IMG/VR virus record: IMGVR_UViG_3300032260_000018
Span: 1 to 29,026 of that record
Direction: 5' to 3' (one strand)
DNA length: 29,026 bases
Source of the DNA: a virus
Lineage: Duplodnaviria; Caudoviricetes
Below are positions 1-16,172 of this stretch, piece after piece. Each line of letters opens with the position of its first letter. Positions within the stretch are counted from its first letter, which is position 1. The notes under the pieces are model-generated. The model was not told the DNA's origin, did no database searches, and saw only the letters and a program-made list of their open reading frames with translations. The translations under genes were made by a program, and so were the position numbers.

Positions 1-1
1 C

Positions 2-124
2 CCCACTGATGACTATTACATTCCTGAAGGCTGGTATGAAGAAACTTGGGAAGGCGAAGTGTTATATGAAATTACTGGCGATGTTGTTGGATGGGCACCG
101 CAACCAATTTTTACTGCCAGATAA
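2..124 (+). CDS. C-terminal part of a DUF551-like small phage protein (5' truncated by the window edge)
   Basis: Frame 2 reads PTDDYYIPEGWYEETWEGEVLYEITGDVVGWAPQPIFTAR*. The 'YIPEGWYE...V.GW.P.P' pattern resembles DUF551 C-termini. The stop lies in TAAC (122-125). Not in the ORF track. Confidence 0.6.
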   Translation, partial: PTDDYYIPEGWYEETWEGEVLYEITGDVVGWAPQPIFTAR

Positions 125-208
125 CATTGCAAATGAGATGTAGCCAACACTGAAATTAACTTAAAAACCGCAAAGCTTTCGCGGTCTTTTCGATTTGCTT
201 TATTATAC
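119..208 (-). mobile_element. attC-like recombination site 1 (degenerate)
   Basis: AGATAAC-ATTGC-AAATGAGA ... TTTC-G-ATTTGC-TTT-ATTATAC. Imperfect inverted repeat with an extra G in the right arm and an internal hairpin ACCGC/GCGGT. Confidence 0.6.
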
Positions 209-221
209 GACGGTGATAGCA

Positions 222-518
222 ATGACGGCGTGGAACAGAGCGTTTAAAGACGACTATGTAGAGCCAAGCCCTATTAGTAATAATGATATGGCTAAAGTTC
301 TAGAGTGCGAACTAAAACCATCCTGCGGGCTAAAAACCTGGAATGATGTATTTCTTAATGGCGTATATCTTGGAATGGTTAGAACAAAGCTTGGCGGGAA
401 TCATGAGTACAGACTGAGCCGTAACGACTCCCCGGTTTATTGTGGGCAAATAGGTAATACCGGAGACCCAAAGCATGCCAGGGCAATACTGGCCTTACGT
501 ATAAAGCTAGTCGTATAA
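222..518 (+). CDS. Hypothetical cassette-borne protein (start uncertain: TTG195, ATG222 or later)
   Basis: ORF track 195..518. The stop TAA lies within GTATAAC (513-519). Confidence 0.55.
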   Translation: MTAWNRAFKDDYVEPSPISNNDMAKVLECELKPSCGLKTWNDVFLNGVYLGMVRTKLGGNHEYRLSRNDSPVYCGQIGNTGDPKHARAILALRIKLVV

Positions 519-644
519 CGATTTAAATCACCTGCTTGCGGGTGATGAAATGAACTGTTGCAAATAATGCAATAGTTGGACGAAGAGAAGAAATTTAACT
601 CACGCACCGCAGTAGCAAGTCAGCGTGGATTTTGATGGTTATAC
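513..644 (-). mobile_element. attC-like recombination site 2
   Basis: GTATAAC GATTT AAATCAC CTG CTTGC ... GCAAG T CAG C GTG G ATT TTGATG GTTATAC. Perfect 7-bp outer cores and paired inner arms with three unpaired bases (T, C, G) on the right arm. Confidence 0.8.
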
Positions 645-646
645 AT

Positions 647-675
647 AAAAAAGGCCAGCGCTCTAGCTGACCTTT
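647..675 (-). terminator. Intrinsic terminator-like hairpin acting on minus-strand transcripts
   Basis: AAAAAAGGCCAGC-GCTCTA-GCTGACCTTT. On the minus strand this is a stem followed by U6. Confidence 0.5.
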
Positions 676-766
676 AGGTGGGCAAATACAGAATACTTCC
701 CCGGTGTGAGAGATTTAATATTACACCAAAGATAAAAAGCTGGCAATTATTGTAAATGGAGGAATT

Positions 767-937
767 ATGGCAAAAGCACAACGAGATTTGAAAGTTCATT
801 TAACGCTAACAGAAGAAGAGGCAATTGATATATATATTCACCTAAACCCCAAATACCATCCGAACAAGACAGAAGAGATAAAGACTGCGATTAAAGATGC
901 ACTTGGCTACGAGCCAATTGAGGCACCAGATGTATAA
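767..937 (+). CDS. Small hypothetical cassette protein, 56 aa (MAKAQRDLKVHLTLTEEEAIDIYIHLNPKYHPNKTEEIKTAIKDALGYEPIEAPDV)
   Basis: Strong GGAGG SD just upstream of ATG767. The stop lies within GTATAAC (932-938). Below the ORF-track length cutoff. Confidence 0.75.
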   Translation: MAKAQRDLKVHLTLTEEEAIDIYIHLNPKYHPNKTEEIKTAIKDALGYEPIEAPDV

Positions 938-1055
938 CGTTGTAAATAACCTGACCACGGGTAATGGAATAAGGAGCTGAATAGCATGAATACAACCACA
1001 AATATTGCAAACAACCACCGCTTTAGCTGGTCTGCGTTGAAATGCATGGTTATAC
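932..1055 (-). mobile_element. attC-like recombination site 3 (contains the SD and start codon of the next gene)
   Basis: GTATAAC GTTGT AAATAAC CTG ACCA ... TGGT CTG C GTT GAAA TGCATG GTTATAC. Same spacing as site 2. AAGGAG and ATG986 lie in the loop. Confidence 0.75.
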
Positions 1056-1552
1056 ACCGTAAACGCGAGGTTTTGATTGCCGCTGGTGTTACCGTGCTGG
1101 CTATTTTTATAGGGGTTGGATTTAACTCCAAAATACATGAGACAGCCCAATGCTCTGCGCTATCAACCATAAAAATGATTGCAAATTACTCTGAAACAAC
1201 TACCGCCATAGATATGGAAGGCAATCCGTATATTGATACTGATTACTGGACTGAAGATGCCTCTAATACCTATTACGTTGAAATGCTCAACCTTGATGTT
1301 ATTAAATCAAATATAGCCCACACAATGAGCGGGAACATAGCGGTACCTATAGGTGAATTTCAGTACGATGAAACAATGAAGCGTGATCGGCATTTTGATA
1401 GTTTTAGTGTTAACAGGAATTCAGAAATACACCAGTCTTTTGCCGATGGTGAATACGTGAGTATTAAGCCAAGCCAGTACGAAGAATGTTTTTTAAACAT
1501 CGGAAGCATGGTTGAGGTTAAGTACTGGTACCAATTCGCCTACGGTGTATAA
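986..1552 (+). CDS. Hypothetical membrane-anchored protein (cassette-borne)
   Basis: 188 aa with an AAGGAG SD and one hydrophobic segment (VLIAAGVTVLAIFIGVGF). The stop lies within GTATAAC (1547-1553). Confidence 0.75.
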   Translation: MNTTTNIANNHRFSWSALKCMVIHRKREVLIAAGVTVLAIFIGVGFNSKIHETAQCSALSTIKMIANYSETTTAIDMEGNPYIDTDYWTEDASNTYYVEMLNLDVIKSNIAHTMSGNIAVPIGEFQYDETMKRDRHFDSFSVNRNSEIHQSFADGEYVSIKPSQYEECFLNIGSMVEVKYWYQFAYGV

Positions 1553-1645
1553 CAGGGGCTAGACATAACAAGGAACAACAATAGGGGGATGGCTGACAAA
1601 TGGACTCGGCATTATATTCGTGCAGCGGGGGTAGTTGAATTAAAA

Positions 1646-1654
1646 TGATATACT
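1646..1654 (+). promoter_or_regulatory. Extended -10 promoter candidate for the primase gene
   Basis: TGATATACT (TGn-TATACT) about 70 bp upstream of the primase start. No clear -35. Confidence 0.45.
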
Positions 1655-1666
1655 GTACGACCGAGC

Positions 1667-1692
1667 AAAAAAAAGCCCCGTTGGAGCGGGGC
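1667..1692 (-). terminator. Terminator-like hairpin, minus-strand orientation
   Basis: A8-GCCCCG-TTGGAG-CGGGGC. Confidence 0.55.
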
Positions 1693-1723
1693 AAATACTG
1701 AGGACAAATCATGAGCAATTATT

Positions 1724-4285
1724 ATGCCAAGTAACTTAGAGTTCGTCAACGCTATCTTTGGGAAAGACGCACCTTGGTGCCATGTTACGGATTTCCAATA
1801 TGACCCACTTAACATACCTGATGACAAAAGACACATCGCATGGGGTGGGGACTACTTTAGTCGTTACACTCTCACTCCTGACACCAACCAGTACTTCACC
1901 ATCTCATGCTTCTATGCAGACGACACCGGAAAGGCTCGCCGCCGAAAGGCGTTATATCGGCACACTCCTTGCATAGTGCTTGATGACGTGCGTGAGAAAT
2001 TGTGTGAAGAACAAGTTAAGAAGCTTCCCTCACCAAGTTGGATCTTAGAGACCTCACCAGGGAGTGAGCAGTGGGGATACATCCTAGCTGAACCATGCAC
2101 AGACCGTGCCAGGGTTGAGAACCTGCTTGACGGTCTGGTAGCCAACGGCCTGGCTCCTGGTGGCCGCGACCCAGGCATGAAGGGTGTGACACGCTACGTC
2201 AGGCTGCCAGATGGTGTGAACACCAAAGCCAGTAAGATGGTGGACGGTCAGCCGTTCAAGTGCCGTATGCTGCTGTGGGAGCCGTTCAGACGCACCACAA
2301 TGGAAACACTTGCTGCACCGTTTGCAGTTGACCTGGACAAACCCCGCCGTGAGCAGTGTGTCGATGGTGCAGCAGATATCCCCGACCACCCCTTGCTGCA
2401 GATCCCTGACACTATTCACATTAAGGAGGTGCGTTCTGATGGACGATTCGACATTACTTGCCCGTGGGTTGAAGAACATACGGGAGCTGATAACAGCGGT
2501 TCAGCGATCTTTACCAACGAAGACGGAAGTATTGGGTTTAAGTGTCATCATGGTGCTTGTCAGTCTCGTACTGGTCGTGACTTATTTCAATTTATAGAGG
2601 GTGAGAAACCTGGTTTCGGTTCTAAGTTCGCATCCTGGCGCGGTCTTAGAGCGTTAGCACCGGTGAGTACGTTAAATTTTTATGGACCTGGCGAGGCGCA
2701 AGCCTCGTCTCCCACCAGTGACATCCAACAAAAGGATTGTGAACCACAGGATGTCGCCTCCGCCGGACTTGACCAACTCCTCAACCAGCTCCGACAAGTT
2801 AACCCTTCCTCAGCTGACGCTCGATCAACAGCGTCAACTCTCCTGCAACTGGTGGATTCTCTACCGGCGATAGAGAAGAAGCACTGGCATGATCAAGTCT
2901 GTGACATCATGCACTGGAGTAAAGCAGACTTTAAACCCATACTTAGAGAGCTGCGTGAGCAGTGGTATCAGAAAACAAAAACAGCAGACTGGTACAATGA
3001 CTTCGTTTATCTACGAGAACAGAACCTCTTCTACAACTTCAAAACCTACATCTTTTTCACCCCTGAAGGATTTCAAAACTCCTACGCTGATAAAGAGACA
3101 GAAGCAAGGAAAGAGGCGTTGCAAGCGGGTCGAGTCAAGAAGGTGGACAAGCTCGACTTCGCACCAAAGCAACCCCGATACTTCACCGACGCGGGTATTG
3201 ACTACGCCAACGCATGGTCACCGGATGATGAGATTGCAAGCACTCAAGGTGATGTCACCCGCTGGTTGAGTCACTGGGATGCCATGGGGTGGGGTGAGTA
3301 TCGTGACCACATGCTGAAGTTCATGGCGTACACCATCCTGCACCCGGACGTTAAGATCAACCACATGCTGATGTTAGGTGGAGGTGAGGGCTGCGGTAAA
3401 GATTTCCTGCTCTACCCGCTCACCATGGCTATGGGGCGCAACAGCACCACTATTGACGGTGAAGAGCTGTTGACGGACTACCGGGGGTATCTGCTATCAA
3501 CCAAACACCTCCACATCAATGAGGCAGAGCTTGGCACCCGTCAAGAGGCCGTTGCCATCAGTAACAAGCTCAAACCCCTGGCTGCGGCACCACCGGACAC
3601 ACTGAGAGTGAATGAGAAGTTCATGAAGGCGGTGAAAATACGGAACATAGTCAACTGCACCATGACCACCAACAGTCAGCTCCCGGTGCGTCTGAACGGC
3701 CCCAGTCGCCGCATCTATGCCATGTGGTCTCATCTCAACATACGAGGTGAAGATGGTAACGTTACGGCCGAATGGCAGCGCTACTGGCGTGAAAGCTGGG
3801 AGTGGATGAAGAGTGAGGGCGCTGCAGCTTGCGTGTGGTACTTGCGAAACTGCGTGGATATCAGCAACTTCAACCCTGGTGCCCCACCCCCCATGACTGA
3901 GTTCCTGCGTGAGATACAGGAAGCCTCCAAGTCACCGGCTCAGGTTACTATAGAAGAGTTCATCCGCAAGCGAGTGTTCCAGTGTGACCTACTCACTGCT
4001 GCTGATATGTCAGCTGTGTTACGCGCTGCTGAGTTGAGTAGTGAGTTGAGGAACCTGATGTCCATGGAGCCAAGCTGGTTCACACCCACCAGAGTAGGTC
4101 AGGTGCTGCGAGAGATGCCTCAGTGCAGGCAGGTGAAGGCGTACAAGAGTCGATACTCCATGCGTGTCTGGATCCTACGTGATGTGGTTAAGTATGAGGA
4201 GCTGGGGTGTGGGGCCAGGCTGGTTGAGGAGTACGATCGCCAGCAAAAGGAAATAAAAAAGGGAAATTCCATCAGGGCGGTTTAA
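1724..4285 (+). CDS. Primase-helicase: RepB-type primase domain, Zn finger and DUF5906/NrS-1-like helicase
   Basis: Motifs CIVLDDV and PSWILETSPGSEQWGYIL (RepB-like primase), CPW..EH...CHHGAC (Zn ribbon), Walker A GGEGCGKD, LHINE (Walker B-like) and TTNS...SRR. Confidence 0.85.
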   Translation: MPSNLEFVNAIFGKDAPWCHVTDFQYDPLNIPDDKRHIAWGGDYFSRYTLTPDTNQYFTISCFYADDTGKARRRKALYRHTPCIVLDDVREKLCEEQVKKLPSPSWILETSPGSEQWGYILAEPCTDRARVENLLDGLVANGLAPGGRDPGMKGVTRYVRLPDGVNTKASKMVDGQPFKCRMLLWEPFRRTTMETLAAPFAVDLDKPRREQCVDGAADIPDHPLLQIPDTIHIKEVRSDGRFDITCPWVEEHTGADNSGSAIFTNEDGSIGFKCHHGACQSRTGRDLFQFIEGEKPGFGSKFASWRGLRALAPVSTLNFYGPGEAQASSPTSDIQQKDCEPQDVASAGLDQLLNQLRQVNPSSADARSTASTLLQLVDSLPAIEKKHWHDQVCDIMHWSKADFKPILRELREQWYQKTKTADWYNDFVYLREQNLFYNFKTYIFFTPEGFQNSYADKETEARKEALQAGRVKKVDKLDFAPKQPRYFTDAGIDYANAWSPDDEIASTQGDVTRWLSHWDAMGWGEYRDHMLKFMAYTILHPDVKINHMLMLGGGEGCGKDFLLYPLTMAMGRNSTTIDGEELLTDYRGYLLSTKHLHINEAELGTRQEAVAISNKLKPLAAAPPDTLRVNEKFMKAVKIRNIVNCTMTTNSQLPVRLNGPSRRIYAMWSHLNIRGEDGNVTAEWQRYWRESWEWMKSEGAAACVWYLRNCVDISNFNPGAPPPMTEFLREIQEASKSPAQVTIEEFIRKRVFQCDLLTAADMSAVLRAAELSSELRNLMSMEPSWFTPTRVGQVLREMPQCRQVKAYKSRYSMRVWILRDVVKYEELGCGARLVEEYDRQQKEIKKGNSIRAV

Positions 4286-4300: not shown

Positions 4301-4328
4301 AAAAGCCCGCGGTTAGGCGGGCTTCTTT
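4301..4328. terminator. Bidirectional intrinsic terminator between convergent genes
   Basis: AAAAGCCCGC-GGTTAG-GCGGGCTTCTTT, located between the primase stop (4285) and the operon end (4333). Confidence 0.8.
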
Positions 4329-4332
4329 GGTG

Positions 4333-4985
<653 letters not shown>

Positions 4986-4989
<4 letters not shown>

Positions 4990-5137
4990 TCTGGTCTCTC
5001 CAGGTTATGCTGCTTAATAAGAGCCTCTTCTATGGTCACAGCAGCGTTCTCTCGCTCTCTCAGCCACTCACAGAGCCACCGGGGTAGTCTGGTGTTGTAA
5101 GGCTCTTTACGGTGCTGCAGCGGGGCTGTGGGGCGGC

Positions 5138-5141
<4 letters not shown>
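4986..5141 (-). CDS. Small putative DNA-binding (RHH-like) protein, 51 aa (MSRPTAPLQHRKEPYNTRLPRWLCEWLRERENAAVTIEEALIKQHNLERPE)
   Basis: ATGA overlaps with both neighbouring genes. The 'RP...K.P.N.RLP.WL.EWL.......IEEAL' pattern fits a beta-strand followed by two helices. Absent from the ORF track. Confidence 0.7.
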
Positions 5142-5826
<685 letters not shown>

Positions 5827-15740: not shown

Positions 15741-16172
15741 ATGATTCTATCAGCACAACAGTTGTTTTCTGATGACCAGGCGATCACTGCTTCTGCAGAT
15801 TCTACCAACGTCATTGATCTCGGGGTGCCTGGCACTCCTTACCGTGCAGCTGCACCACTTAACCGTGACATCGGTAAAGGTGCCAAGATTCCGATCTTGA
15901 TTCAGGTGACAGAGGCATTCAACAACCTAACCAGCCTGGAGATTAAAATCTCCACTGGTGCAACGACTGCGCTTGGTACTACCATTCTAAGTCAGACCAT
16001 CCTTCTGGCCGATTTGGTGGTTGGTAAACAGACTTCGTTCGTCGTGTTGCCTAACGATATCACTGAGCGTTATCTGGGTATTGAGTACGTGGTCACTGGT
16101 ACTGCACCGTCTACCGGTCAAGTAACAGCCGGTATTACCATGGGTGTTCAAACCAATACCACTGGTGCATAA
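15741..16172 (+). CDS. Bbp16-like capsid cement/decoration protein
   Basis: 'MILSAQQLFSDDQAITASADSTNVIDLG...RYL...Y.V.GT..TG.VTAGI'. The true start is probably ATG15741. Confidence 0.85.
   Translation: MILSAQQLFSDDQAITASADSTNVIDLGVPGTPYRAAAPLNRDIGKGAKIPILIQVTEAFNNLTSLEIKISTGATTALGTTILSQTILLADLVVGKQTSFVVLPNDITERYLGIEYVVTGTAPSTGQVTAGITMGVQTNTTGA

Follow-up and report, generated by a model that had tools for sequence, protein, structure and literature searches.

The window analysed here is the virus contig IMGVR_UViG_3300032260_000018 (Caudoviricetes) in its whole length of 29,026 bases, estimated to be 64% complete. The contig begins within a gene. At this left end four small open reading frames (ORFs) alternate with three sites that resemble attC, the sites at which IntI recombines integron cassettes, and a lone fourth core closes the series. 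The features of this array are, from left to right:

2-124, + strand: gene 1, truncated at its 5' end by the contig start (40 aa remain), with its stop codon within the R' core of site 1
119-208 (90 nt), bottom strand on +: attC-like site 1, degenerate, 12 of 16 template pairs
222-518, + strand: ORF2, 98 aa, or 107 aa if the upstream TTG at 195 is used
513-644 (132 nt), bottom strand on +: attC site 2, well formed, 18 of 21 template pairs
767-937, + strand: ORF3, 56 aa, conserved small protein
932-1055 (124 nt), bottom strand on +: attC-like site 3, mismatched inner L box, 16 of 19 template pairs
986-1552, + strand: ORF4, 188 aa, hydrophobic stretch near the N-terminus, first 23 codons inside site 3
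1547-1569, + strand: likely attI-like end element, a single core that forms no hairpin, with the crossover predicted between 1552 and 1553

Since the contig start falls inside gene 1, the array probably continues leftward beyond it. TAAC cores are located at 122-125, 516-519, 935-938 and 1550-1553. A sequence-only reading of this DNA had claimed that four accessory ORFs end in the TAA of such cores, and an in-frame stop was indeed confirmed in each. This ending is shared by 4 of the 4 array ORFs versus 3 of the 31 other ORFs listed for the window. Further, the pattern RTATAAC-N5-AAAT, with at most one mismatch, occurs in the window seven times, which 0 of 100 shuffles attain, the expectation being 0.73; five of the seven are arms of the three sites.

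The three sites belong to the attC class, as the sequence-only reading had rightly proposed. On the + strand an unpaired G is positioned 17 nt from the 3' end in all three. The R' and R'' cores are complementary in sites 2 and 3 (7 of 7 pairs); site 1 fails with a right core ATT for GTT. Thus, the proposed consensus ending in GTTATAC holds for sites 2 and 3 but not for site 1. The inner L boxes pair in 3 of 3 positions in sites 1 and 2, and in 1 of 3 in site 3. Imperfect hairpins had been claimed after three of the cores; the sites are in place, yet only site 2 folds better than shuffled sequences as a single strand, with z-scores of -3.64 on the + and -2.93 on the - strand. Neither site 1 (z 0.27) nor site 3 (z -0.95) surpasses shuffles, and the fourth core lacks a hairpin (z 0.17).

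A covariance model, R1, was built from 46 canonical bottom strands, 44 of them bacterial as found by our own heuristic and two from phage TJE1. In the training alignment the imposed pairs covary, with 87.5% of the cells paired and 0 of 500 shuffles as high, the training sites having been selected for such pairing. As a control R1 recovered 16 full-length sites, none used in training, in the Vibrio anguillarum integron of MK672802, for which 16 sites are also counted by Qi et al. (PMC9892861). In the 29-kb window site 2 ranks first (23.5 bits, E 3.7e-4) and site 3 next (13 bits, E 0.21), both on the + strand; site 1 was not found. Counts by R1 are lower bounds, as its default filters miss heuristic-found arrays in L273 and L275 and the second site of L313.

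All three sites have relatives elsewhere. The right arm of site 1 is 78% like a site in phage contig L314 which retains GTT. For site 2 the relative is a site of the bacterial array L290, with 84% identity over 45 nt. Site 3 shares 26 identical nt with the left arm of a site of the same length in phage contig L291. Other contigs of run X1, the one read run examined and possibly the source of the window, match sites 2 and 3 in the attC part alone, and their flanks differ. It is scarcely credible, then, that these are chance palindromes around promoter-like TATAAC or stop-codon motifs. The shuffle-like folding of sites 1 and 3 speaks for such an origin; against it stand the motif excess and the TAAC endings. 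It is excluded for site 2, which has the model score on its side, and made unlikely for site 3 by the homologue in L291 and for site 1 by that in L314. Being degenerate, sites 1 and 3 may recombine poorly today. At 16049-16075, inside a structural gene, the window holds another 27-base palindrome with attC-like outer cores (11.8 bits), which is probably due to chance. A first broad pattern scan of viral contigs yielded a cluster of two sites with a heuristic score of at least 14.5 in 0 of 120 loci; the pattern was uninformative.

The orientation of the sites is the central point. IntI cuts the AAC of R' on the bottom strand, and extrahelical bases decide which strand is used (PMC5027507). In the published bottom strand of aadA7 the unpaired bases are on the 3' arm (Qi et al. 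supplement, PMC9892861). Just so, the + strand of the window, i.e., the gene-sense strand, carries its unpaired bases on the 3' arm. As judged from the sequence, the attC sites of the window are inverted relative to the genes, with the gene-sense strand as the recombinogenic bottom strand. This is why each stop codon sits in a crossover core. It is also why the three units proposed earlier, with their boundaries at AA^C, are right; they follow from the strand assignment, with crossover at the bottom-strand AAC of R' (PMC5027507):

125-518, + strand: predicted cassette A, remainder of site 1 plus ORF2
519-937, + strand: predicted cassette B, remainder of site 2 plus ORF3
938-1552, + strand: predicted cassette C, remainder of site 3 plus ORF4; same layout as the first cassette of the bacterial integron L329

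Each unit has the order attC remainder, gene, and stop codon inside the next crossover core. Cassette C is likely the newest, as it adjoins the end element. The four genes are all encoded by the bottom strand and point to the end element, whereas a complete integron would have them on the top strand, read from Pc at the attI end.

The inversion is not peculiar to the window. Among sites with a heuristic score of at least 14.5, 30 of 35 phage sites are inverted, three canonical and two unassigned, as counted in 13 of 14 phage loci which were chosen for having sites; the 79 sites of bacterial arrays comprise 13 inverted, 51 canonical and 15 unassigned ones. In the control MK672802 all 16 R1 sites are opposite to most of their annotated genes. 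The TJE1 array, too, is canonical, its bottom strand being opposite to the annotated genes. When seven phage arrays were inspected, an ORF of at least 40 aa stopped exactly in R' at 31 of the 36 listed sites, and the ATG of the next ORF was inside the site in 16 of 36 (longest-ORF rule, starts as predicted).

A CALIN (cluster of attC sites lacking an integron-integrase) holds at least two close attC sites and no neighbouring intI. In the window sites 2 and 3, one strong and one marginal, are 288 nt apart, and neither PF00589 nor TIGR02249 has a match in the contig, the array running off its left end. Thus, the window array qualifies on two predicted sites as a CALIN. It is not a complete integron, since it has no intI and its genes are on the wrong strand. 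Phage attC clusters are already published: the CALINs of TJE1, P12002L and PH101 (Qi et al. 2023, PMC9892861) have, like the window, at least two attC sites between small ORFs and no intI. Their sites recombine with attI1 under IntI1 (PMC9892861). The inverted layout, too, exists in a tested phage. In H101 (NC_029094.1, 76529-77987) three attC bottom strands and the genes gp133-135 are on one strand, a polarity as in the window; gp134 stops 26 nt short of the core, whereas the genes of the window stop inside it. Two of the three H101 sites are nearly identical, downstream leader sequence included. The TJE1 array is canonical where that of the window is inverted. The text of Qi et al. calls the TJE1 and PH101 arrays typical, and the portion of it available to us makes no mention of gene inversion, stops in R', starts inside attC or an attI-like end in lytic phages (PMC9892861). 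A literature search, covering titles and opening abstract lines only and few subscription papers, returned no account of inverted phage arrays with attI-like ends.

Features in common with bacterial integrons such as that of MK672802 and class 1 aadA7 are the R and L boxes, a bottom strand with an unpaired G, units of one small ORF each and an attI-like site that closes the array on one side; the attC sequences are related as well (L290). Unlike these integrons, the window has no intI, its bottom-strand genes point to the attI-like end, and new cassettes would enter far from the promoter. Its spacers of 6 nt on both arms place the G at position 17 instead of 16, a feature also present in bacterial L290. 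It is very unlikely, and largely excluded, that the array is passive cargo, taken from a host chromosomal integron in a single illegitimate recombination event. Such captures are described in temperate phages (Qi et al., PMC9892861), site 2 resembles a site of the bacterial array L290, and the polarity of TJE1 is canonical. Yet 51 of 64 assigned bacterial sites are canonical versus 3 of 33 phage sites, the genes run with the phage operon, and relatives carry different arrays at different places, with phage families among the cassette genes.

The fourth core is likely an attI-like insertion site rather than an attC. From 1548 on, 13 to 22 of its bases recur in three other phage contigs, where they close one inverted array in L291/L313, two in L308/L309 and one in L314. 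The identity spans 22 nt in L304/L308, 20 of 21 in L314, 18 of 20 in L309, and 13 nt in L291. Conservation begins at TAAC and extends for 45-60 bases among the four other arrays; the bases before TAAC vary. In two contigs which share the end element the backbones are clearly different. Both of the separate inverted arrays of the 35-kb phage contig G008 (L308 and L309) terminate in a copy of the element. A degenerate version of the end-element pattern gave seven matches, of which three, without array, were treated as chance. Dismissed in the same way were motif matches inside an integrase-like coding sequence (L305, L306), in or beside long coding sequence (L310-L312), and at a place without array (L289). 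A site upstream of intI in L315 compares with the element at 11.1 bits, too weak to be used.

The end element of L001, the contig with the nearest primase, has a sequence different from that of the window, and it is this version which has a bacterial counterpart: in the bacterial locus L336 the boundary of the first cassette, 382 nt upstream of intI, matches it at 28 of 31 nt (E 1.4e-5, computed over 108 kb of 31 intI loci). A known double-stranded target of IntI, attG, is likewise a lone GTT core without hairpin (bioRxiv 10.1101/2022.09.11.507474). It requires GWT only; among phages the end element of the window type shows conservation over 20-55 nt, and the version present in one relative matches a bacterial attI. 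The sequence-only reading missed the attI-like nature of the fourth core, as it did the inversion of the sites and the degeneracy of two of the three.

Related phages carry arrays of the same build in different positions. In L001 11 R1 matches are downstream of the primase gene, in L005 seven are upstream of it, all on the gene strand, and the L005 array is preceded by a sigma-70-like promoter seen by eye. Just before this promoter-like sequence, L005:5140-5660 is non-coding with repeated short motifs, a candidate origin or packaging region. Arrays are patchy: R1 gave 17 matches in 9 of 100 primase-anchored loci (the 100 were taken from about 160 fetched, many of them duplicates or flank-limited, and R1 is insensitive at default filters). 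None was found in four Vibrio phage records (L006 partial) or in P12002L. The content of the relatives' arrays differs as well, and their cassette genes include phage families, i.e., a helix-turn-helix repressor, a PAPS reductase and a weak Lar-like match. In one array a gene for Csf3 (type IV Cas5; L309:5893-6525, - strand; PADLOC E 4e-39) ends in an attC R' core and belongs to a multi-gene block, up to L309:9157, between two attC sites; possibly this block is a type IV CRISPR-Cas module carried as a single cassette.

The sites might, alternatively, descend from attC but serve now as expression and homology modules, providing ribosome-binding sites, starts and terminators, while the genes move by ordinary repeat recombination without IntI. 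We consider this unlikely. In its favour speak the degeneracy of sites 1 and 3, the ATG of the next ORF inside 16 of 36 sites, the lack of an excision joint in run X1, and an enrichment of terminator-like hairpins at 1-1800 (eight versus 1.7 expected; seven of the eight on the - strand; consensus scan only). Many sites contain the following gene's ribosome-binding motif along with its start codon; for ORF4 both the motif (971-976) and the start (ATG 986) are within site 3. But the sites of phage arrays are mutually dissimilar, with 43% mean column identity, too low for easy homologous exchange, and nevertheless the bulge geometry is kept. Further, the end element is conserved precisely from TAAC on while the bases before it vary, and a bacterial integron (L329) has an inverted cassette exactly at attI.

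Which enzyme, then, would act on these sites? No integrase was found in the window, either by PHROGs on 36 ORFs or by searches with PF00589, TIGR02249 and PF00239, in agreement with the earlier statement, and the gene beyond the end element is a primase, not the intI of a complete integron. PF00589 had no match in 5 of 5, 3 of 3 and 5 of 5 virus records, including the complete G001, G002 and G389, TIGR02249 none in 4 of 4, and PF00239 none in 5 of 5. By these three family searches G001, a complete record with a seven-site array, is without tyrosine recombinase, IntI or resolvase. The earlier proposal had left the choice between a host IntI and a phage recombinase encoded outside the window. 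A host IntI in trans is the best reading, and a phage enzyme is disfavoured because G001, complete and array-bearing, has none. An IntI-like or Xer-like recombinase in the missing third of the genome, which would make the array self-contained, is thus quite improbable, even though the contig is 64% complete and starts inside the array: the virus records tested lack PF00589, TIGR02249 and PF00239 matches. In the bacterial family of genome G006 IntI scores above cut-off in 116 of 201 genomes; this count indicates that IntI is common in bacteria with related attC sites and says nothing of their being the host.

These observations probably describe a phage array of integron-type cassettes with inverted attC sites and an attI-like end element, on which a host IntI likely acts in trans. 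During infection the sense strand would become single-stranded and fold, and the host IntI would cut at AA^C. The units 125-518, 519-937 and 938-1552 would leave or enter as such, new cassettes entering at 1552/1553, opposite to the end where an upstream phage promoter is presumed. From this promoter the genes would be read toward the end element, and the terminator-like hairpins of the - strand may damp opposing transcription. Since the cut would fall just past the stop codon, an insertion would leave the upstream gene intact. The sparing of this gene may be one reason for the inversion; another may be that the sense strand is exposed if the genes run with the fork. It is reported that bottom strands on the lagging-strand template recombine more (PMC5371416), that phage attC sites, those of H101 among them, are recombined by IntI1 (PMC9892861), and that IntI also inserts at minimal GWT sites (bioRxiv 10.1101/2022.09.11.507474).

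One sign of movement comes from run X1. A contig with a depth of 60 matches 1-126, whereas the depth of the phage body is 11.6. Another record follows gene 1 to position 126 and then continues with 25 different letters. Of the first 20 of these, 14 are identical to the end element of L308, in a register fixed by the core and compared by eye. This suggests a putative molecule in which gene 1 directly abuts an end element. The loose end at 126 was also considered as another attC arm, a possibility dropped because the end element aligned better. Gaps in the cover of run X1 at 289-432 and 721-1008 were treated as no evidence.

Several points weigh against a mobile array served by a host IntI. The divergent record is a single one and its 25 letters past the break are below the bar of 31 letters; no excision joint was seen in run X1. 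Sites 1 and 3 do not fold better than shuffles, site 1 was missed by R1, and site 3 is marginal. The three contigs which share the end element bear one dataset number and are not independent habitats. For the window's version of the element no bacterial copy was found: with one mismatch allowed the pattern is present in 6 of 201 genomes, below the reversed-pattern control, a longer pattern in 0 of 380 genomes, and a weight matrix gives the sequence upstream of intI no advantage over the opposite strand (19 of 29 loci). No near-identical phage with gain or loss of a whole cassette was found, the closest full-length primase being 64% identical. Finally, as only 64% of the genome is at hand, a recombinase could lie in the missing part.

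A second sign of movement is seen in bacteria, whose integrons contain cassettes of the same inverted layout. In L329, a complete integron, the first cassette at attI is inverted, with a bottom-strand ORF which starts inside attC and stops in the attI core. This attI is confirmed by L330 and L331, which have the sequence in common from TAAC on. The protein of this cassette matches phrog_7810 (E 6e-25) from residue 29 only; therefore, the leader encoded by attC is an addition to a protein of a phage family. Runs of short inverted cassettes are present in two further bacterial integrons (L362:4229-6115 and L385:695-2228), and one of these cassettes encodes a Mom-like DNA modification protein (E 6e-31). 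Matches to PHROGs were obtained for 3 of 11 ORFs of these inverted runs versus 2 of 4 canonical ORFs, which alone is not discriminating. The bacterial attC array L290 has repeated related cassettes without long ORFs at 700-1190, 1310-1800 and 2930-3385.

The first formation of cassettes is considered "largely unknown" (PMC5371416). The inverted layout makes their origin testable: a gene is unharmed by an insertion just behind its stop codon, and a pair of such insertions would create a cassette. One may go further and speculate, although we hold this to be doubtful, that lytic phages run an inverted integron of their own with a copy of the host attI, parasitise the host IntI, and are the birthplace of cassettes, which flow from there into bacterial integrons (L329, L362, L385). 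IntI would insert attC at the TAA-C stops of phage operons without breaking genes, and a phage gene between two such insertions would be a new cassette with start signals supplied by attC.

Integrons have been regarded as devices of bacteria and, in recent work, as reservoirs of anti-phage genes. Should phages indeed possess attI-like sites and inverted cassettes, they would use the same enzyme to vary their own early genes while infecting. That bacterial integrons contain inverted cassettes with proteins of phage families suggests that genes flow between phage and host in both directions.

Gene 1 belongs to no PHROGs, Pfam or PADLOC family, and an exact 33-nt piece of it has 0 matches in viral contigs. 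In a search of 5.8 billion proteins the sole match of ORF2 was itself; ORF4, too, recovered only itself in the protein search and had no usable Atlas match. ORF3 has five homologues with 66-73% identity. Rfam and tRNA scans gave no match, and blastn of window 1-1724 against 50,697 phage records gave short chance matches only.

Around and beyond the array are the following features:

650-675, - strand: terminator-like hairpin, consensus scan only, facing against the genes
1675-1692, - strand: terminator-like hairpin, consensus scan, between the array and the primase gene
1724-4285, + strand: primase-helicase, PHROGs DNA primase E 1e-19, the first core phage gene beyond the array; context, not part of the element

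Besides the primase-helicase, PHROGs identified both terminase subunits, the major head protein and tail proteins among the 36 ORFs scanned. The primase is 50-56% identical to those of six records of Vibrio phages of 43-44 kb; the nearest full-length one in a viral contig is that of L001 with 64% identity. At 4307-4747 and 5124-5525 the window has low-complexity repeats of 9-15 bases and two adjacent ORFs on the - strand, of 218 and 230 aa, which Pfam assigns as Imm5-like and DUF7666. The - strand genes of L001 include a pentapeptide-repeat-like ORF.

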